Of a stretch of DNA of 53,031 nucleotides, positions 68-18,373 are shown piece after piece. Source of the DNA: a virus (Duplodnaviria > Caudoviricetes); the IMG/VR virus record IMGVR_UViG_3300035137_000015, positions 1 to 53,031 of that record. One strand, 5' to 3'. A model generated the notes under the pieces. The model saw only the letters and a list, made by a program, of their open reading frames with translations. It was not told where the DNA came from and searched no databases. Positions within the stretch are counted from its first letter, which is position 1, and every line of letters starts with the position of its first letter. Both the position numbers and the translations under genes were made by a program.

Positions 68-565
68 TTAGTATACAGGCATGTCCTCGTCAGCGACAAC
101 GGTCACTTTGCTCGCGCTGTCGAAGTCAACAACGTGCTCATGCGGAATCACCTCCTCGTGAAGTCGCTGGTGCGTCGCCTCATCCGGCGCGAGGTACATC
201 GTTATATCCAGCCTGTTGCCGCGCTTCTCCACCTGCGGCTTCGGCATCTTGATGCTGATATATTTGTACCAGTCGCAATACCGTTTGAATCCGTCCATGA
301 TGGCCCGTCTCGTCTTCGGTCTTATCCTGGACATCGTGGCCTTCTCACACTGGATGTTCGATCCAGTGAGCATATCTCTCACGGCGGCATAGACGGCGCC
401 AACGTAGATGGCCCGCTCCTTCTTCTTCCTCAGCCTCTTCCTACCCCTCATCGCCGTCCTCCTCGCGCATCTTCCTCTCAATCTCGTCAAGCCGCTTGTC
501 CATATGAACATAGCGCTCCATCCAAACCAGAAGCTTCTTCTCCACCTCGCAGACCTCGCGCCCAA
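68..565 (-). CDS. Hypothetical phage protein (start uncertain)
   Basis: 165-aa ORF on the dominant coding strand; no recognisable motif. Confidence 0.4.
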   Translation of the reverse strand: MGARSARWRRSFWFGWSAMFIWTSGLTRLRGRCARRTAMRGRKRLRKKKERAIYVGAVYAAVRDMLTGSNIQCEKATMSRIRPKTRRAIMDGFKRYCDWYKYISIKMPKPQVEKRGNRLDITMYLAPDEATHQRLHEEVIPHEHVVDFDSASKVTVVADEDMPVY

Positions 566-704
566 TGCCCTCGATTGCCCTGAGCCTTTCCAAGATGTCC
601 TCCTGGACCTTCTCTACTGCTGATACCCTGCTGACGAAGTCCTGATACATCCAAAAAAGCTTTGCGTGAAGCTCCGAAGGCTTCATATCGTCGATGTCTG
701 TCAT
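441..704 (-). CDS. Hypothetical coiled-coil protein
   Basis: MTDIDD... heptad-like E/K/L-rich sequence; start moved to ATG 704. Confidence 0.45.
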   Translation of the reverse strand: MTDIDDMKPSELHAKLFWMYQDFVSRVSAVEKVQEDILERLRAIEGIGREVCEVEKKLLVWMERYVHMDKRLDEIERKMREEDGDEG

Positions 705-816
705 TGATTTTCGCCTTTCGAATTCGATACATTGATCGAATATGCCATCCCGCGCCCCCTCCCACAGCGCCCTCAAACTCTACTATACGTTGGTATAGGG
801 GCGCAAGGGGGAGATC

Positions 817-1578
817 TTAACCCCTGTTCCGAAACGCCCGCTGCTTCTCAATCTGCCGGATCAGTGCGTCTCGGTAGTAGTCCCCGAGGTGGGCCGTTAC
901 AAACCGTGTAGGCGGCCCTAGCCAATCCCTTGCCCTCGTGTACAAGGTCGTGTGTTCCATGCTGTAGAGCATCCGGAGGCGGGCACCTGTGGGCCATCCG
1001 CGCTTGACTCTGCGCCCCCCGAGTACGCGGTAGAAGCCCTTTTTGTACTTGTTGGAGGCCTTCCCCCTGACACCAAGAAAAATCGTCCTGTCGCCCGACT
1101 CGACAGCATCCTGGACGCGCCTAATAACGGCCTGCTTGGTGTTCTTGTACTTTTCCCGAATGCGCTTCGCCACTTTGAGCCGGTTTATCCAGTTGGACCG
1201 ACGAATCACCCGGGTCCTCGGCTTCGCCCCCTCCTGGCCCGCTGCAGCCGACGTGGGCAGGGGGACTCCGTGCTTGCCCCGCGTGTGCTCGGTGAACCCT
1301 TCGGTCTGCTTCCGCATGAAGTCCTCGGTGGAACCGGCCGCGCTCTCCATGTCTTCGATTCGTCGCGAGAAGGTCTTCTGGAAGCGGATCGATCTCTGAA
1401 CGAAGGTGTTCCGGATGGTGAAGAGTTGCCCGACCTTTTTTTTGGACAAGTCGCTCGCCTTGTAGGCGGCGGTGTTGAGCGTGCCACGGATTGCGTAGGG
1501 CATCCCCTGTTTGCCGAACTTGTCGAGATCGTTCTCGTACTGCTCGAGGGGGTAGGTGTCTAGTTTGATGTCAAACAC
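817..1578 (-). CDS. Putative tail-completion/minor tail (gpZ-like) protein
   Basis: Basic protein with 'AIRGTLNTAA...FTIRNTFVQRSI' segment resembling gpZ-like neck proteins; GTG start at 1578 after GGAG. Confidence 0.4.
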   Translation of the reverse strand: MFDIKLDTYPLEQYENDLDKFGKQGMPYAIRGTLNTAAYKASDLSKKKVGQLFTIRNTFVQRSIRFQKTFSRRIEDMESAAGSTEDFMRKQTEGFTEHTRGKHGVPLPTSAAAGQEGAKPRTRVIRRSNWINRLKVAKRIREKYKNTKQAVIRRVQDAVESGDRTIFLGVRGKASNKYKKGFYRVLGGRRVKRGWPTGARLRMLYSMEHTTLYTRARDWLGPPTRFVTAHLGDYYRDALIRQIEKQRAFRNRG

Positions 1579-1822
1579 CGCCGTCTCCTCTCCCTGCGTC
1601 CGGATACCCGATGCCACCGGCGGGCTCCGGGTAGGTTTCGGCATCCTCGTCAGCATCCGTGTCGGTGTCGTCCGCTTCGGCGAGCAAGCCGTGGGCAAGC
1701 GGAGCATCCGTCCTCTCAAGCATCGGAACAACTGGCTCCGTGTCCGTGAGCGCTTCGGTGTCGGTGTCCGCCGGGGCCGCCTCGTGGCACCCGACGATAG
1801 CCATCACAAAAACAATCTTCAT
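1571..1822 (-). CDS. Small acidic lipoprotein
   Basis: MKIVFVMAIVG-C lipobox-like signal followed by DTDT-rich acidic stretch. Confidence 0.5.
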   Translation of the reverse strand: MKIVFVMAIVGCHEAAPADTDTEALTDTEPVVPMLERTDAPLAHGLLAEADDTDTDADEDAETYPEPAGGIGYPDAGRGDGGV

Positions 1823-2059
1823 CAGTTTTCCAAGCATTCATTCCTCCTTCGTTGGTCATCACTTGGATCGTAGCACTTCGTAGGTCTCCGAACCAATGTT
1901 TTCCGCACGCGCCTGAGCGTTCGAGCACCTGCGCCCCCAACGGATGTACGCGCACCCACCCTTGCTGGTTGTTTCGGCGCTGTAGCAATTCTCAAAGTGG
2001 GAGCACGGCGCTCCGCACACCCAGGGTGTTCGGAGCAGTATCCGTGCCTGGCTTCATGC

Positions 2060-2407
2060 TCACTCCCTAGATGCACCTTTCGGAATTTGTGGACAAGGCG
2101 AAACAGAATTCCACTTGTTTGTGACGTGGTTCACCCGGTCAACAAACGCCTCCATGGTACAGCCATGATCTGCAACAAACAGAGGCACCCCGTCTTCACC
2201 ATCCTTGCTGTCGTATAGCTCTACATGAAACATGCACTCCTTGTTCTGGCAATGTAGATAGAGGCGATATTGGCGGTCTCCAGCCTGCTGGAGGTACCAT
2301 GCCGGAAGCTTCCCGCAGTACGGGCATGGGCCTGGCCGCCAAATGAGAAATGCGCCAAACTCAGCGCTTTTTTTGGGTTCTACTTTTATATCCATCTTTG
2401 ACTCCAT
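2060..2407 (-). CDS. Hypothetical zinc-ribbon protein
   Basis: CPYC...CQNKEC motifs; true start MESKMD after AAGGA, downstream of the repeat array. Confidence 0.55.
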   Translation of the reverse strand: MESKMDIKVEPKKSAEFGAFLIWRPGPCPYCGKLPAWYLQQAGDRQYRLYLHCQNKECMFHVELYDSKDGEDGVPLFVADHGCTMEAFVDRVNHVTNKWNSVSPCPQIPKGASRE

Positions 2408-2441
2408 TCTTCGTTCCTTTCGTTTCCGAGTTAAAAACCGT

Positions 2442-2467
2442 GTTTTACACCCCGTCGGGTCTTTGCT
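2442..2467 (-). other. Conserved 3' hairpin motif of downstream pentamer array
   Basis: Minus strand AGCAAAGACCCGACGGGGTGTAAAAC, near-identical to motif at 3525-3548. Confidence 0.6.
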
Positions 2468-2769
2468 GGGCTCAGCCTGGCTGCGCCGTTCCTCTGCCCA
2501 TCCTTGCCACGCCGTTGCATCGCCACGCCTTGCGACGCATTGCCGTTGCAATGCTCGGCCGCGCCCTGCACAGCCGTTGCCCGGCCGAGCAATACGAAGC
2601 CGTTGCAGCGCCTGGCCGCGCAGCGCGAGGCCACGCCGCTGCCATGCCGTTCGAAGCCTCGCCCTGCCGTTGCAAAGCACTGCCCCGCCATGCGAGGCCA
2701 AGCCGTCGCAAGGCAGTACCGGGCCCTGCCAAGCCTTTGCCAAGCGGAGCCGCGCAACGCCGTCGCAAA
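2465..2769 (-). repeat. Pentamer-periodic array B (candidate guide ncRNA)
   Basis: Plus-strand GCNNN pentamers punctuated by GCCGTT-like hexamers at 2485, 2511, 2542, 2573, 2599, 2635, 2666, 2702, 2733, 2759 (spacing 26/31/36). Confidence 0.85.
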
Positions 2770-2770
2770 C

Positions 2771-3502
2771 CTATTGAATCTCTTCCCACTCAAACCGACC
2801 CATCCCGCTGTTCCGCCACTGTCCGATCCCCTTGCGCTTCCCGTAATCCAGTGCCTGGCGGACGAATTTCTCGTATCCCGGATACATTACCTCTACCTCA
2901 AATTCGATCTGAGAGCCCTTCGGGATCTTCTCCGAGCACGCCAGCGCGACGCGCTCCCCCTTCATCGTTTCGGCTCGGAGCGGCCTGACCTCAAGCTTGT
3001 CATTTTTGTGATCTGGTTCCAGCGACCTCTTGCACCAGTCGACAGAGCTTTGACCTTCTGGGAATTTGATCGGGATTTCGCGAGGGTAAACGAAAATGTA
3101 ATTGTCCACCCGGCGCTTCACGACAAAGAACGAAATCTCACTGCATCCTGTTGGCCGGATGACTCCGCCATTGTCGACGAATATTCCGAACATCTCCTTG
3201 ATGAACCCTTTGATCTGGTAATCCAAGAAGATCGGAACGTTCTCATCGTCCTCGGACCTGCGGAAAACGGTCATGCCCTTTTCCTCAAGCTCCTCCTGCG
3301 GGAGGTTTTTAAGCTCGTCCTTGACCTTCTCCTTGTCTGCCGAGTTTTTACCGATGTGCTTTGAGTATATCTCGGGATCGGCCGGAGATGTACCGAGGAC
3401 CGGCCTCGTGAATGTGAGCCGGACCTTGATGGTTTTCGGATCGAACTCTGCTGTTTTCTTCGGTGGTTTTGCGGTTTTCTTTTCGGTTTTCTTTTCAGTC
3501 AT
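2771..3502 (-). CDS. Stand-alone Cas7/RAMP-like protein between pentamer arrays
   Basis: N-terminal beta strand 'IKVRLTFTRPVLG', 'YQIKGFIKE' helix, 'SEKIPKGSQIEFEVEV' strand and C-terminal G-rich loop 'GIGQWRNSGMGRF' typical of RAMP fold. Confidence 0.75.
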   Translation of the reverse strand: MTEKKTEKKTAKPPKKTAEFDPKTIKVRLTFTRPVLGTSPADPEIYSKHIGKNSADKEKVKDELKNLPQEELEEKGMTVFRRSEDDENVPIFLDYQIKGFIKEMFGIFVDNGGVIRPTGCSEISFFVVKRRVDNYIFVYPREIPIKFPEGQSSVDWCKRSLEPDHKNDKLEVRPLRAETMKGERVALACSEKIPKGSQIEFEVEVMYPGYEKFVRQALDYGKRKGIGQWRNSGMGRFEWEEIQ

Positions 3503-3524
3503 TTTTCTTGCCTTTCAGCTGGTT

Positions 3525-3548
3525 GTTTCGCCCCGTGGGGCCTTTGCT
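3525..3548 (-). other. Conserved 3' hairpin motif of upstream pentamer array
   Basis: Minus strand AGCAAAGGCCCCACGGGGCGAAAC, near-identical to motif at 2442-2467. Confidence 0.6.
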
Positions 3549-3560
3549 TTTCAAGTCATC

Positions 3561-3810
3561 GCCTTGCTCTGCCGTTGCCGGGCAGTGCCGAGCATTGCCG
3601 TTGCCCTGCTGCGCCGCGCCACGCCGCTGCCATGCCGTGCAAAGCCTCGCCCTGCCGTTGCTACGCCGAGCGCCGCACTGCCGTTGCCGAGCTGCGCGAC
3701 GCTTTGCCGTTGCTCTGCCGGGCAAAGCCCTGCCCCGCCGTTGCTGGGCTTTGCTGCTCGCCGCGTTGCCGTTGCATTGCCAGGCAGATCTGAGCCAAGC
3801 CGTTGCTGCC
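3561..3810 (-). repeat. Pentamer-periodic array A (candidate guide ncRNA)
   Basis: GCNNN pentamers with GCCGTT/GCCGCT hexamers at 3571, 3597, 3623, 3654, 3680, 3706, 3737, 3768, 3799 (spacing 26/31). Confidence 0.85.
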
Positions 3811-3816
3811 ATCTGC

Positions 3817-4554
3817 TCATCGTCTCCTTGCCTTCGCATAAATCCGAATCCTCTCCTCTACATCAACCTGTATCTGCCGTATTCTCTCCCGCGTCAGCCC
3901 GAGGATATCCCCGACTTCAGCCAATGACATCCCGGCCGCGCGGCAGGTGAAGACGATCCGCTTCTTCGCATCCATCCGCATCACCGCGCACCATGCAACA
4001 CGGCGCATTTCATCGACGGAAATCCTGTCTACCGTCTCGTTTTCACCACCAGGCCCCGGTATGACATCTTTCAACGTGAACCCGTCGTCTTTGTGTCGAA
4101 GCTCAACGTCCATCGACTCGCAATAGACCAACGCTTCACAAATCTTCTTCGCGCCTTTTTTCGACAACTGCCCCCTTCGTAATTCGAGGGCCTCAACCGC
4201 CTCGTCAATGGTAGGCATTCTGCCCGTTCGCCGCTCTTCCTCCTTTCGGTACTTGTGAACCTTTCGGCGGATCTCGTCTGCGTGGAATGGGACATAAATG
4301 TGACTGCTCAGGACGATTGCGCGTTGAATAAAACACCGGATCCACCAGTGAGCGTAGGTCGAAAACTTGAAACCCCTCGATTCGTCGAAAAGCTCTGCCG
4401 CCCGCAGAAGTCCGATATATCCCTCCTGCTTGATGTCCTCGATGTCCATCCCAGATCGCCGATACTCGTTTGCTATGGCCGCGACGAGCCCCTTGTTCTC
4501 GATGGCGAGTTGGTTTCTGCGGTCAATCGCGGCATGATCCATCGCGGCGCTCAT
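3817..4554 (-). CDS. RNA polymerase sigma-70 family factor
   Basis: Region 2 'DIKQEGYIGLLRAAELFDESRGFKFSTYAHWWIR' and region 4 'SLAEVGDILGLTRERIRQIQ'; ATGA overlap with cysH-like stop. Confidence 0.92.
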   Translation of the reverse strand: MSAAMDHAAIDRRNQLAIENKGLVAAIANEYRRSGMDIEDIKQEGYIGLLRAAELFDESRGFKFSTYAHWWIRCFIQRAIVLSSHIYVPFHADEIRRKVHKYRKEEERRTGRMPTIDEAVEALELRRGQLSKKGAKKICEALVYCESMDVELRHKDDGFTLKDVIPGPGGENETVDRISVDEMRRVAWCAVMRMDAKKRIVFTCRAAGMSLAEVGDILGLTRERIRQIQVDVEERIRIYAKARRR

Positions 4555-5255
4555 TTGACAACGCCCGAAGCTGCGATTCTGTTCAAGACATCTGGGTAGT
4601 ACTCTCGCTCCCATTCGGTTCTCCCCATGCCGTTCCCTGTCGTTCCGGACAGCGAGTGTGTTCGGAGATTCTCTCTTTTGTACCGTCCTCCTCCCAGATA
4701 TCCGTAGACCGGTGAAAGCGGAAGTCCATTATCGTGGATGTATGCGAATATTTCAGACGATCTCCAAAGAGACAGCGGCCTACAACTGTTTTTGCTAGCG
4801 AAACCATTGACGCACCATTGCAATGAGCGAACCGAAGATTCATCATTTCTAATGCCAGAGCACCTCTTTCCATACTTTTCAAAAAGTATTTTCCAATGTT
4901 TGTCTCCTTTTCTCACATCGCGATATTCGAAAACTTCTTCTTTGTAATCGAAATCGTGGGTGCGCATGAAGACGTCTCTAACCGAATCACAGTCCGGATT
5001 TGCCCGGTCACTAAATCGCATATACACAACAGATCTTTCGATGCCGCATTTCAAAAATAAATCCAACAATACGATACTATCTTTTCCCCACGAAACCATA
5101 ACGCAAGATTTATCGTTAGAGGAAAGGAAATCTCGCATCACGGTTATTGACTGGTCGCATTTCTGCTCCGACCATTTAGACATCGCATCAATCTCCTCGT
5201 AGTCTGACCACAAAGCGAGATCTTCTGTTGAGTGCCTATCTGTACGTATCAGCAT
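4551..5255 (-). CDS. cysH: CysH/PAPS-reductase-like PP-loop protein associated with type IV-B Cas
   Basis: 'VSWGKDS' PP-loop, 'GIRNDES', 'RPLSLWRSSEIFAYI..NGLPLSPVY' motifs; adjacent to csf genes. Confidence 0.85.
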   Translation of the reverse strand: MLIRTDRHSTEDLALWSDYEEIDAMSKWSEQKCDQSITVMRDFLSSNDKSCVMVSWGKDSIVLLDLFLKCGIERSVVYMRFSDRANPDCDSVRDVFMRTHDFDYKEEVFEYRDVRKGDKHWKILFEKYGKRCSGIRNDESSVRSLQWCVNGFASKNSCRPLSLWRSSEIFAYIHDNGLPLSPVYGYLGGGRYKRENLRTHSLSGTTGNGMGRTEWEREYYPDVLNRIAASGVVK

Positions 5256-5440
5256 ATCCTATACCTGTTCCCTGGAAGTTCTTGCACCGGCAAAAACAAT
5301 GACAGTTCGTTGATTATCCTAATTGCTGTCCTGCGGTTCACTTCAAGCAATGCAGCAATTTCGGATGTAGTGTGCTCCCTTGATCTCAATGCGTCCTCGG
5401 CTCTCCTGCGCCGTTGGTATGGCGTGTCTGTTCTCAGCAT
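5249..5440 (-). CDS. Small HTH DNA-binding protein
   Basis: 'TTSEIAALLEVNRRTAIRII' HTH; overlaps both neighbours via ATGCTGA. Confidence 0.7.
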   Translation of the reverse strand: MLRTDTPYQRRRRAEDALRSREHTTSEIAALLEVNRRTAIRIINELSLFLPVQELPGNRYRIC

Positions 5441-6117
5441 GGTATCCCCACTTCCATGAATGTTTCTGGGTGCCAGTACGGTGGGAAAGCGCCACCGAAA
5501 GAATGTCGGTATCCGGTAGCATGGGCATCCTTTACGGCTCCTATCGGCAGCGTCTTCATTAGGACAGTCCCTCCCTTATTCGGTGCGAACAGGGAGTAAT
5601 CATCAGGCTGTTCGGAGTATTCCCATCCGGCTATTCTACCGTACCCGTATGACCTGCAATGCCCAAGCGCTACGATGCGCTTCAGGAGCTTGTTCATCTC
5701 CTTCCTGTCCCCGCGAACAAACCAGTTGACGGAATCTACAACGCGTATACGGAGCGGAACAAAACGCGATTTATAAGGGCCGCTCGAGGTGAGGAGCTTC
5801 TTCCTGCTTCGCGCGCCAAGAAGCGCCGCGCAAATGTCGGTATCGAACCTCTTTGATTGTCGCTCCGTGTATTCGGCAAACACGTTTCCGAGTATCGGAT
5901 CAGAGGAGCAGTAAAAATCGATCCCACCGATGGTTCGCTTGGAAACCGGGATCGGCGGGTGCTTGATTTCGGACAGCGGCACGTTCCGCGTGAGCTTCTT
6001 CGCCATCTTGTACCCGAGGCGAAGCGCCAGCTCGTATTCGAGCAACGCATCAATCCGAGGGGGGGCCCCGCAAAGCGGTGATGACAAGTTGCACTTCACT
6101 AGCCAGTTCTTCAGCAT
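5434..6117 (-). CDS. csf3: Type IV CRISPR-associated Csf3 (Cas5-like RAMP)
   Basis: 'LSSPL...IDALL', 'SGPYKS', G-loop 'LGHCRSYGYGRI', C-terminal 'PPYWHP'; ATG overlaps csf2 stop. Confidence 0.82.
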   Translation of the reverse strand: MLKNWLVKCNLSSPLCGAPPRIDALLEYELALRLGYKMAKKLTRNVPLSEIKHPPIPVSKRTIGGIDFYCSSDPILGNVFAEYTERQSKRFDTDICAALLGARSRKKLLTSSGPYKSRFVPLRIRVVDSVNWFVRGDRKEMNKLLKRIVALGHCRSYGYGRIAGWEYSEQPDDYSLFAPNKGGTVLMKTLPIGAVKDAHATGYRHSFGGAFPPYWHPETFMEVGIPC

Positions 6118-7016
6118 CAGAAATTCTCCCGTAGCCACTCGGAGAGCTCGTCGACGTGTGTATTGACGTGGGCGATGTAATCTTTGATAAGCTCGCACGG
6201 GTCTTTCAGCGCACCGAACCAATCTTCGAGACCCTCGATGTGCAGCGACGTGTTGAGCTTCCCGTGCCCGATTCTCGCGCTTCCACCGATGGTCCCGCCG
6301 CCGTTTTGCCAGAGGTGGATCGCGTGGAGCGCCGCCCCTACCTCCAACGGTGACACGTTGTACAGAATCACATCGTGATAAAATATCGCGCCCTGAATAA
6401 CGGTCTCTCCATTGTACACCATTAGATTTGATTTCGGTGCCGCGTCGCCCTTCACGATCTCTGAAGCGTCTTTCATTCTTGCCGCGTCACCTCGTGTATA
6501 CTGATACTTCGAAATGAACGATTGAGCGGGCATCAATTTTTCATCCACAATTCCGAATATTGATGGAGCGGTTTTTTCGAGCACGCCCTTATTCTCTTCG
6601 CAGACCAAAATACCGCGCGACACGAACAGGGACCCGCCGACGACCTGGTTCTTCAGCGCACCTCCGAGAAGACGATACAGTGGAGACACCGTGTGGAGCT
6701 TTGCGATCGCAGGGATGTTGTCCGTAGTGGAAGACTCCGTCAGGCTCCCGCCGGTGAACATGTAGTTCGCCTGGTCGATGTTCAGGTTCCCGCGTAAGCC
6801 GCAGGCGTCGACCAGGTACAGAGCCCCAGGCCCACGGATCATCCGGTGGCGAAGCGCATTGCCGCTGAGCACCGGAACTTCTACCACGTCGTTCTTGAAG
6901 ACGACCTTCTCTCGGTTAAGGATTGACTCGTTACCCGATACGCCTGACATGTGCGTAATCGGAGACATGGCCTCTGAGAGCATATGAATTTTGCATGTCC
7001 CGATCTGTTTCATCAC
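6117..7016 (-). CDS. csf2: Type IV CRISPR-associated Csf2 (Cas7 backbone)
   Basis: 'SPITH', 'VPVLSGNALRHRMIR', 'FTGGSL', 'LLGG', G-loop 'IGGSARIGHG'. Confidence 0.87.
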   Translation of the reverse strand: MMKQIGTCKIHMLSEAMSPITHMSGVSGNESILNREKVVFKNDVVEVPVLSGNALRHRMIRGPGALYLVDACGLRGNLNIDQANYMFTGGSLTESSTTDNIPAIAKLHTVSPLYRLLGGALKNQVVGGSLFVSRGILVCEENKGVLEKTAPSIFGIVDEKLMPAQSFISKYQYTRGDAARMKDASEIVKGDAAPKSNLMVYNGETVIQGAIFYHDVILYNVSPLEVGAALHAIHLWQNGGGTIGGSARIGHGKLNTSLHIEGLEDWFGALKDPCELIKDYIAHVNTHVDELSEWLRENF

Positions 7017-11103: not shown

Positions 11104-12140
11104 AACAGACTCCCTTGCTCGCTGGCTACACAGTGAGGAGAAAACCAAATCCTCTCCTTGTATTTGTTTTTGTTGCCATCAGAGTTCCGTGAAGCATATC
11201 CTCCTCTTGTTTTCCAAGATACGCATTCCCAGCTTGGCGGCATCTCGTGCTCTCCTTCATAGCCGCAGAGCGCGATCCGCATGTTCTTGTCTTCACCGTG
11301 TTCAATTGCCCACCTCCTCACATCATCGGACACCGAAAGCGACTCTTTTGCGTACAAAGATGAGCATCTTTGAGCGGCTTCGCCGTAGGGAGGGTCCAAA
11401 AATACGGCTGTGGTCCCCCGTATTGTGGTTGGTGTTGGGCCACATACCCGAGACCAGTCTCCGCAACAAACTCTCACGCGTCGCATGCGTTCGGACAGTT
11501 TTTCGAACCACTCATAAATTCCGCCCTTCCTGTGGACGCCTCGCCCGGCATTCCCGAGGTGGACGAGCTTCCTGTGGACGCCTCGCCCGGCATTCCCGAG
11601 GTGGACGAGCTTCCTGTGGACGCCTCGCCCGGCATTCCCGAGGTGGACGAGCTTCCTGTGGACGCCTCGCCCGGCATCCCCGAGGTGGACGAGCTGGCCG
11701 TCTACGACCTGCCACGGACCTTTCCCGCTGCAAAATTCGCTTCCTATCCAACAGCAGATCCCCCAGACCCACCACCCGGCTATTTTTGCGTCGTAGTAAT
11801 CCGGGTCACCCTCGAGGAGTGGAGTCAAACTTTCCCGCTGGTTGATCAACCACGCGTGACGCGCATGGAGATCATTTTCGTTCACAGGCCAATCTGCGTA
11901 ACGAGCCACTTCGCTAGGATCAGACGATACGGATCTCCAAAAGTTGGCAACAAATCCGTCCAGGTCGTTGATCGTTTCTGTCCTGTTAACGCGCGGAGAG
12001 CCGAGCAATACAGCACCAGATCCGAAAAACGGTTCAACGTAATTGTCAACCTGGCCAAATCTTTTCCAGACAAGATCGGCGACCATCGACTTTCCGCCAA
12101 ACCATGGGAACGGGGCCTTTAGCGGTTCATCGGATCTCAT
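11100..12140 (-). CDS. DNA adenine methyltransferase (Dam/D12 class)
   Basis: 'PFPWFGGK', 'YVEPFFGSGAV', 'INDLD', catalytic 'FLDPPY'. Confidence 0.92.
   Translation of the reverse strand: MRSDEPLKAPFPWFGGKSMVADLVWKRFGQVDNYVEPFFGSGAVLLGSPRVNRTETINDLDGFVANFWRSVSSDPSEVARYADWPVNENDLHARHAWLINQRESLTPLLEGDPDYYDAKIAGWWVWGICCWIGSEFCSGKGPWQVVDGQLVHLGDAGRGVHRKLVHLGNAGRGVHRKLVHLGNAGRGVHRKLVHLGNAGRGVHRKGGIYEWFEKLSERMRRVRVCCGDWSRVCGPTPTTIRGTTAVFLDPPYGEAAQRCSSLYAKESLSVSDDVRRWAIEHGEDKNMRIALCGYEGEHEMPPSWECVSWKTRGGYASRNSDGNKNKYKERIWFSPHCVASEQGSLF
11526..11693. repeat. 4 x 42-nt in-frame tandem repeat within methyltransferase
   Basis: CTTCCTGTGGACGCCTCGCCCGGCATTCCCGAGGTGGACGAG x4 (one mismatch) = (LVHLGN/DAGRGVHRK)4. 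Confidence 0.95.
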
Positions 12141-13626: not shown

Positions 13627-14145
13627 TCACATCACCTCCAGTATCCATATGAGGTACTTCTCGAGCGCGGCGTACCTGGCGGCGTCGCTGATGGCAACAC
13701 GGGAAGCGTCCCTGGCGGCGTCGCTGATGGCAACACGGGAAGCGGCCCTGGCGGTGTCCCAGACAGCGTCCCAGGCGGCGGACCTGGCGGCGGCCCTGGC
13801 GGGGTTCCAGACAGCGTCCCAGGCGGTGTTCCAGGCGGTGTCCCAGGCGGTGTCCCAGGCGGCCTCATATCCGGTCACCAGATACCACCAGACCACGTCC
13901 GGACAGCCCCAGTATGGCTCCACGTCCAGCGCGATTCGTCGCGCCACTCGGTTTGCTCTCCACGGCGAGTGAGCGTGAAGCATCTCCGACAAAGCCCAAA
14001 TCCGGTCGAGGACCGGGATGTCTAGCCCCGCGATGTCGTCTTGGGTGAGAATCTCGCGCCCTGCCCACAGCTCTCGGACCCGCTCTTCGGGGTAGTCGTC
14101 GCAAGGACCGAAAGACATGATATCTTCTACGGTCGCGGTCAGCAT
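13627..14145 (-). CDS. Ala/Trp-repeat protein, paralog of 20861-21340
   Basis: AWDTAWDTAWNTAWDA repeats; strong N-terminal similarity to 20861-21340. Confidence 0.65.
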   Translation of the reverse strand: MLTATVEDIMSFGPCDDYPEERVRELWAGREILTQDDIAGLDIPVLDRIWALSEMLHAHSPWRANRVARRIALDVEPYWGCPDVVWWYLVTGYEAAWDTAWDTAWNTAWDAVWNPARAAARSAAWDAVWDTARAASRVAISDAARDASRVAISDAARYAALEKYLIWILEVM

Positions 14146-18046: not shown

Positions 18047-18096
18047 AAGTTGCCCCAATCGCTCCAGGGGCATCGGAGAACAGCTGCCAACTGTTG

Positions 18097-18373
18097 TGGA
18101 GGCGCCGGGAGTCGAACCCGGGTCCATCTTCCCATTCAGGTACCGATCATTCACGTGCGTAGTCTCACAGACAGTAAAGAAAAATGTGAATTGATTCCCG
18201 TAAAATGGCGCCGCATACGATACACGGGAACTCTCGCATGTGACGGAAGGTCTAAGCCGCCTTCTGTTGTTGTACGTCTTCGACGATTCTGAGTTTACGG
18301 ATTTTTGCCCTGATTCCGTCACCAGGGGCACGCACGATATCTTTCTGTTGGATGTCGAAACCAGTTCGCCCCC
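18097..18373 (-). ncRNA. ssrA: tmRNA (compact, 277 nt)
   Basis: 5' GGGGGCGAACTGGTTTCGAC, 3' GACCCGGGTTCGACTCCCGGCGCCTCCA with G3-U70 pair; pseudoknot CCCTG/CAGGG + ACGGA/TCCGT; tag frame ...VEDVQQQKAA* at 18252-18284. Confidence 0.9.

Follow-up and report, generated by a model that had tools for sequence, protein, structure and literature searches.

We found that a locus at the left end of the window, which is the full 53,031-bp record of a virus and is linear, is very probably a VIPR (Viral Interference Programmable Repeat) system, in which the gene of a small predicted RAMP protein is flanked by two arrays of five-base repeats that are punctuated by a six-base unit after every 4-6 repeats. 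This kind of system is already in print, and the initial annotation of the arrays had not named it. Two features may be new: the punctuation by a +1 hexamer, which sets off modules of 4-6 repeats, and a Q-for-D change in the protein that accompanies a relaxed repeat.

VIPR was first described in 2026 as a CRISPR-like RNA-guided system. As set out in the accessible parts of that paper (10.64898/2026.04.26.720920), it consists of a small phage-encoded stand-alone RAMP (Vipr) and of vrRNAs in which 9-16 YNNGG repeats are followed by a tail; the protein holds GGY, and NN pairs with double-stranded DNA, with one base skipped per repeat. The same source distinguishes seven types, six vap genes, the alternative repeats NNNGG, YNNNG and NNNNG and several array architectures, and it notes that RAMPs have little sequence similarity among themselves. 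According to the accessible parts of the structural work (10.64898/2026.04.26.720927), the filament contains one protomer per repeat, with six protomers per turn when free and five on DNA, and the Vipr of Escherichia phage SUSP1 reads G1 by H17 and D177, G2 by R138 and W178, and Y3 in a pocket with R179.

The vipr gene of the window (2771..3502, minus strand) encodes a protein of 243 aa, P0001, predicted to be a stand-alone Cas7/Csm3-like RAMP with the G-loop GIGQWRNSGMGRF. It lies between array A (approximately 3510..3816), which fills the interval between the stop of a sigma-factor gene and the vipr start, and array B (approximately 2441..2770), which is directly 3′ of vipr; both arrays are intergenic and on the minus strand. 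On the plus strand, both tracts follow the pattern [GCCGTT][GCNNN]x4-6. Read in the sense of the gene, they consist of NNNG[C/A] pentamers with one AANGG[C/A] hexamer (AACGGC and variants) per 4-6 pentamers. The repeat tracts are longer than the initial annotation had placed them, the coordinates of which span array B alone.

Dynamic-programming segmentation, in which 4-, 5-, 6- and 7-mers were permitted, resolved array B into 50 pentamers and 10 hexamers and array A into 41 pentamers and 10 hexamers; the two cores thus contain 91 pentamers, 20 hexamers and no 4-mers or 7-mers. The plus-strand starts of the hexamers are 2485, 2511, 2542, 2573, 2599, 2635, 2666, 2702, 2733 and 2759 in array B and 3540, 3571, 3597, 3623, 3654, 3680, 3706, 3737, 3768 and 3799 in array A. 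The delimiter spacings are 26,31,31,26,36,31,36,31,26 in array B and, from 3571 on, 26,26,31,26,26,31,31,31 in array A (motif GCCG[TC][TC]), a count that requires degenerate delimiters to be accepted: 4 of 10 in array B (GCCGCT at 2635, GCCGTC at 2702 and 2759, GCCTTT at 2733) and 1 of 9 in array A (GCCGCT at 3623), with a further degenerate one, GCCTTT, at 3540. On this basis, all 17 spacings of 26, 31 or 36 nt listed in the initial annotation were reproduced, and its statement that phase-breaking indels are absent held for both cores, given that they segment into pentamers and hexamers throughout. An exact GCCGTT at 2646 leaves the phase intact, because it is an in-phase pentamer (sense ACGGC) with an A before it and not a delimiter.

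The pattern exceeds what chance would give. GCCGTTGC occurs in 14 copies on the plus strand, 13 of them inside the arrays, and in none on the minus strand. In a motif-free scan of the 53-kb window for spectral power at a period of about 5, 52 of the 53 sliding windows above the 99th percentile fell in the two arrays, and the peak was located in array B. The arrays share a block of 42 nt (3618..3659 in array A and 2630..2671 in array B, minus strand), in which 40 of 42 bases are identical; both mismatches are at pentamer positions 3 and 5 in the sense orientation, with none at positions 1-2. Because the block crosses a hexamer (AGCGGC) into the following pentamer, it does not correspond to exactly one unit.

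A short hairpin is found at the sense 3′ end of each array. That of array A, the G+C hairpin GCCCCACGGGGC (3525..3541, minus strand), was taken from an inverted-repeat listing and is just 5′ of the vipr ribosome-binding site. That of array B, CCCGACGGGG (2433..2460, minus strand), is followed by GUGUAAAACAC and a U run and is possibly a terminator or cap; its fold is not significant (z -0.88). No consistent RNA structure was found in the arrays, with z-scores of -0.20 for array A, -3.15 for array B and -0.88 for the 3′ flank of array B. The Rfam search returned no match above the gathering threshold over the arrays and sub-threshold noise alone at E <= 10; because a hammerhead was not found in this search, the arrays are not of the ribozyme-interspersed architecture. 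One contig of 261 nt from an RNA library (metatranscriptome) spans 2636-2896 with no mismatch, from the vipr 3′ end into array B, and is uninformative on strand, ends or level, with DNA carry-over possible. The three genes at the left end of the window, which encode a sigma-70-like factor (3817-4614), P0001 and a Cys-rich product (2060-2395), are all on the minus strand. The Cys-rich ORF (111 aa) adjoins array B and has a weak match to the Lar family of restriction alleviation proteins (E 0.011, below the cut-off).

P0001 belongs to no Pfam or PHROG family. Its homologues, of about 200 aa, number at least 1,985 (E <= 0.001); a peptide-pattern search with P0001 alone found no relative, so that an alignment was required, and blastn of 2000-6000 against phage records gave no match. 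An AF2 model built from an alignment of 29 homologues (pLDDT 72.6) has the topology beta-alpha-beta-beta-alpha-beta; a hairpin modelled at low confidence spans 174-187, and residues 225-236 form a G-rich loop. The top Foldseek matches of this model were type VII Cas7 (E 1.6e-8, the best), Cas7-11 and Csm3, and independent structural alignments by VIA gave Z scores of 13.4 with Csm3 and 11.9 with type VII Cas7. A profile search of solved structures likewise retrieved type VII Cas7 (E 2.6e-4), by way of the C-terminal glycine-rich loop. As modelled, P0001 is a small stand-alone RAMP with an RRM core, a G-loop and a thumb.

Within the G-loop, Q228, W229 and R230 are invariant across the 29 sequences and align with D177, W178 and R179 of SUSP1 Vipr, the gene of which (KT454805, 28474-29061) was found through its period-5 arrays. 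The likeness of P0001 to SUSP1 Vipr in sequence is limited to this loop, which was the one segment aligned (hhalign E 0.0035, probability 9%; BLASTP E 0.045). The family HMM of P0001 found nothing in a comparison with SUSP1, and hhalign of the family against a SUSP1-like Vipr from locus L272 gave nothing useful. Homology to a tested Vipr is therefore argued from fold, motif and context instead of from a significant alignment.

Among known systems, type II VIPR, as described from Escherichia phage SUSP1 and a P. fulva prophage, comes closest to the locus of the window. Both there and in the window, a small stand-alone RAMP is carried by a phage, intergenic arrays lie upstream and downstream of its gene and on its strand, the repeats are 5 nt long and combine variable bases with a fixed G/pyrimidine part, the G-loop carries the motif G-x-G-x-W-R, and no cas genes or CRISPR array were seen. 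Two further hallmarks of VIPR are present here, namely flanking pentanucleotide repeats on the strand of the gene, with their fixed GGY-like part and variable bases, and a linkage of gene and array over relatives that are mostly phages and prophages. The window motif NNNG[C/A] corresponds to a 'YNNNG'-like alternative named in the accessible text of the VIPR paper (10.64898/2026.04.26.720920).

There are also clear differences. SUSP1 vrRNAs are separate transcripts of about 100 nt with about 15 uninterrupted GGYNN repeats and a structured, hairpin-containing tail of about 40 nt, whereas the window has 50-60 tail-less repeats with a variable first G and one hexamer per 4-6 repeats. SUSP1 has a vap gene beside vipr, and none that is conserved was found in P0001-type loci. 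In the G-loop, D177 of SUSP1 Vipr, the G1 reader, is replaced by the invariant Q228 in the P0001 clade, a change that, judged from the alignment, would fit the loss of the first G. In place of vrRNAs with 9-16 repeats and a conserved 3′ tail, we found one short hairpin after each whole array; because other architectures are allowed in the accessible text of 10.64898/2026.04.26.720920, repeat number and 3′ tail define type II and not all VIPR.

We compared the gene and its arrays across two independent sets of related loci, and found the pairing kept in hundreds of phages and prophages. Among the best 80 viral loci encoding a P0001 homologue, a strong period-5 tract was near the gene in 77, mostly directly downstream and sometimes upstream, with none at L128, L129 and L202; among the 80 best matches in prokaryote genomes, largely gut Clostridia together with Dehalococcoidia, Planctomycetota and others, a tract was near the gene in 74. 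Read in the sense of the gene, position 4 is G in 92-93% of 2,818 + 5,413 (= 8,231) pentamers, C or A occupies position 5 in about 85%, and positions 1-3 are near-random; the figures for positions 4 and 5 are partly built in, as the segmentation favours those same bases there, whereas the spectral scan and the exact-motif spacing are free of this bias. The arrays thus have the orientation of the gene, since it is in this sense that the G falls at position 4.

Regarding the neighbours of vipr, a divergent cI-like HTH gene was present in 59 of 82 related loci, and vipr came after a small Cro-like HTH gene in 20 of 82. With these neighbours (L126-L205), vipr is part of the region where temperate phages switch between lysis and lysogeny. 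The window is unlike its relatives in that vipr comes after a phage sigma factor. Neither the sigma factor (3817-4614) nor the Cys-rich ORF (2060-2395) has a homologue in the 82 related loci compared; as neither is kept beside vipr in relatives, both were set aside as candidate accessory genes. A conserved accessory (vap) gene or same-operon partner of vipr was not found among the related loci. In a subset of gut-phage arrays (L132, L134, L143, L146, L159, L170, L174 and L179), a strong G+C hairpin and then the conserved GGAACAAATCT follow about 40-110 nt past the last hexamer, and these may serve as a terminator or as a tail of the whole array, or may be an element of their own.

The unit lengths seen in the window are a property of the clade. 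We counted 2,818 pentamers, 523 hexamers, 25 four-mers and 5 seven-mers in 45 non-redundant viral arrays, and 5,413 pentamers, 1,011 hexamers, 60 four-mers and 4 seven-mers in 89 non-redundant arrays from prokaryote genomes. The proposal of the initial annotation that selection acts on the register rather than on the sequence is borne out by these 134 arrays, in which 4-mers and 7-mers together make up 94 of the 9,859 units. From one hexamer to the next, runs of 4-6 pentamers account for 356 of 464 clean runs in the viral set and 623 of 884 in the prokaryote-genome set (about 70-77%), and random (geometric) placement of the same number of hexamers would yield about 20%. Because such runs are far above random placement, the units of 26, 31 and 36 nt represent a regulated, clade-wide property; they result from a six-base mark inserted per 4-6 five-base repeats.

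The hexamer itself differs in composition from the repeats around it. At the place of the first G of GGY, G is present in 41-52% of the window repeats and in 23-26% across the clade. The hexamer retains its GG (87% and 99%) and has A at its first two positions in 58-76%, and the pentamer after it begins with A in 72%. The conserved GG, the AA and the following A indicate that the hexamer is a fixed signal and not a guide position. The initial annotation had also proposed that related arrays be compared for biased substitution, and the changes between homologous units were indeed mostly at positions 1-3, with substitutions per column of 0.17 at position 3, 0.12 at position 2, 0.09 at positions 1 and 5, and 0.04 at position 4. 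Among 431 distinct units, 109 were common to different arrays, in differing orders and with single units replaced. The ends of homology blocks cluster around the hexamer: relative to its start, the interval from +5 to +12 nt contains 419 of the 725 right ends, and that from -8 to +3 contains 382 of the 549 left ends. Hexamer-bounded units are exchanged as cassettes between related arrays, which break at the hexamers.

Support for the assignment to VIPR comes from two related loci that encode a second RAMP beside the P0001-type gene (L272, 4414-5091; L126, 1198-1851). In L272, the homology of this protein to SUSP1 Vipr extends along 210 aa (E 2e-8). In both loci, the second, SUSP1-like Vipr gene adjoins canonical NNGGY arrays of its own (L272 4156-4215 and 5090-5441; L126 923-1146), and the P0001-type gene keeps its NNNG[C/A] arrays of the hexamer type; two VIPR systems of different clades are thus side by side. 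The canonical arrays contain an NGGY 4-mer (AGGC, AGGT or TGGC) per 7-16 repeats, which is a -1 shift that results in units of 5n+4 nt, and a register shift as punctuation is therefore not unique to the P0001 clade.

This observation bears on the 'staggered' arrays of 10.64898/2026.04.26.720920, which, as presented in the accessible parts of that paper, resemble those of the window in being tail-less and contiguous, with the end of one vrRNA being the start of the next; their confirmation by small-RNA sequencing is not reported in those parts. The overlap of 1 nt given in the legend fits the -1 NGGY shift of L126 and L272 better than the +1 hexamer described here, and because of this fit a register shift may be a general boundary mark. 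The 'staggered' figure may nevertheless depict the hexamer type. The accessible text of the paper contains no mention of hexamer punctuation or of 4-6-repeat modules, which its figures, data S4 and figs S17-S18 may show, and 10.64898/2026.10.15.759431 does not mention 'staggered' arrays.

By analogy with type II VIPR, the arrays would be transcribed together with vipr, and each repeat would be bound by one Vipr protomer. The initial annotation had suggested one subunit per pentamer, and this agrees with the published VIPR structures, in the accessible parts of which one Vipr protomer is seen per repeat (10.64898/2026.04.26.720927). The invariant G at sense position 4 and the following C/A would be clamped by W229 and R230 of the G-loop and by the thumb, and positions 1-2 would be exposed and pair with two bases of the target DNA, one base being skipped per repeat. 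Pairing with the target would then silence a competing phage or another mobile element. At the hexamer, the +1 register shift could break the clamp that two protomers form on a repeat, so that one Vipr filament would end and the next start, with or without RNA cleavage, and each hexamer-bounded unit would be a separate exchangeable guide module of 5-7 protomers. We lean, with modest confidence, towards this reading of the hexamer as a guide or filament boundary, and the idea in the initial annotation that the AACGGC delimiters are candidate processing sites or edges of separate guides with 4-6 subunits is plausible.

The main competing explanation, which we regard as possible yet rather doubtful, accepts the VIPR array and takes the hexamers as internal register marks: the whole array or 2-3 units would be one long vrRNA in a continuous Vipr filament, and the extra base per 5-7 repeats would fit the helical repeat of the filament or add a skipped target base. 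This explanation is consistent with the 9-16 repeats of the vrRNAs described in the accessible text of 10.64898/2026.04.26.720920, with the 6 protomers per turn of the free SUSP1-type filament and 5 on DNA as published, which are near the 5-7 repeats per unit here, and with the small hairpin that is present once, after each whole array. The 42-nt block common to arrays A and B also counts against units as guides, because it crosses a hexamer, and modules with 8-12 specified bases would be poorly specific compared with the 18-32 bases of the published 9-16-repeat vrRNAs, which argues against modules of 4-6 repeats as stand-alone guides. By contrast, internal marks would not explain why single units are exchanged between related arrays with break points at hexamers, or why the AA of the hexamer and the following A are conserved, unlike guide positions; the break points could reflect recombination alone, because the hexamer is the only conserved micro-homology. 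A target pattern of two units with a 3-bp hexamer footprint remained unmatched, which speaks weakly against internal marks, as one exact 10-repeat pattern was used. It is very improbable that the arrays act as DNA, either as iterons or as sites to which a replication, partition or packaging protein binds, with a GC per half helical turn and the RAMP as a bystander. The mean repeat of about 5.17 bp puts two repeats near one turn of DNA, and the arrays are near one end of a linear record, but their strand polarity tracks the RAMP gene in about 150 loci, upstream or downstream alike, the partner protein has an RNA-binding fold, and homologous systems make protein-bound RNA, as reported in the accessible text of 10.64898/2026.04.26.720920.

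Least credible of all, to the point of being negligible, is a slippage microsatellite or a low-complexity coding repeat without function. All six frames are open over the arrays, and a delimiter scan of viral contigs yielded at least 117 stretches, nearly all of them coding (GCCGTT)n hexamer repeats in other phages. However, a 5-nt period cannot stay in a reading frame, the register is kept in the arrays even though the unit sequences differ, and the coding hexamer repeats are spaced in multiples of 6 (6-60 in steps of 6, against 26/31/36 here) and vary at the wobble position, unlike the arrays, which are therefore not (GCCGTT)n or (Asn-Gly)n coding repeats. The scan recovered L020 and L094 as its only true relatives; L035 was rejected as one. 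The long (GCCGTT)n-type hexamer or 27-nt repeats (L083 3180-3490, L090 5890-6030, L013 4440-4720, L049 4-330, L066 2790-3212 and most of L009-L125) read as Asn-Gly, Tyr-Gly or Asp-Gly dipeptide repeats or as nonapeptide repeats on the opposite strand, and they share the delimiter letters by chance.

The closest solved folds to P0001 are those of the Cas7 backbone of class 1 CRISPR systems (Csm3/Cmr4; type VII Cas7), RAMPs that polymerise along a guide RNA, whose bases they flip out at regular intervals. Type III crRNAs mature to lengths that differ by one subunit footprint (6 nt). Class 1 Cas7 has a period of 6 nt with 5 paired bases and needs CRISPR repeats, Cas5, Cas6 and other cas genes, whereas the window locus has a period of 5 and a single protein. 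Tandem Repeats Finder detected no CRISPR-like array in the window, and no Cas family was found among the 10 ORFs at 68-7016 (Pfam, PHROGs), so that, within this coverage, the locus lacks the CRISPR array and the further cas genes of class 1 CRISPR-Cas (type III or VII).

A search for natural targets in 3.1 Mb gave matches at chance level alone under the NNN+0 and NNN+1 rules. One exact 10-repeat pattern of two units, with a 3-bp footprint for the hexamer, had no match. Over 8 repeats, the same pattern had 29 matches, about the number estimated for 16 fixed bases, and the match did not extend; three further guides, from L174 (10 repeats), L274 (12 repeats) and L272 (11 repeats), gave 0 exact matches. 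Because exact matching misses mismatched targets, these null results are no evidence against targeting.

A broader and more doubtful form of the boundary reading extends it beyond the P0001 clade. Register shifts might tentatively be taken as the general punctuation of tail-less VIPR arrays (+1 AANGGY here and -1 NGGY in the canonical arrays), which would end and seed filaments without a nuclease and, in the P0001 clade, give about 10 one-turn mini-filaments per array. Because two neighbouring protomers jointly clamp each fixed trinucleotide, a shift of one base could end one filament and seed the next. If this were true, mini-filaments of 5-7 protomers with 8-12 read bases each would make target choice combinatorial or cooperative across modules, a logic unlike that of the single long guides known to date.

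It has been proposed that CRISPR RAMP effectors descend from VIPR and that VIPR is a minimal programmable DNA binder; the tested VIPR systems all have long uninterrupted guides with a tail. In the large P0001 clade, the repeat is relaxed (NGY) and the +1 hexamer recurs at strict spacing. If guide boundaries are set by the hexamer, a single protein divides an array into guides through register alone, and a guide can span as little as one filament turn; if the hexamer is internal, a second rule of the recognition code is revealed. Either reading poses the concrete and testable question of what sets the length of a vrRNA.

Elsewhere in the window, Rfam matched the whole length of the tmRNA model at 18094-18373 on the minus strand (85.1 bits, with a gathering score of 47; E 1.2e-31); ARAGORN called no tmRNA and no tRNA in the entire window. 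Further tandem repeats are located at 11526-11695 (42 nt x 4, 99% identity) and at 13670-13863 (a 12/24/36/48-nt family).
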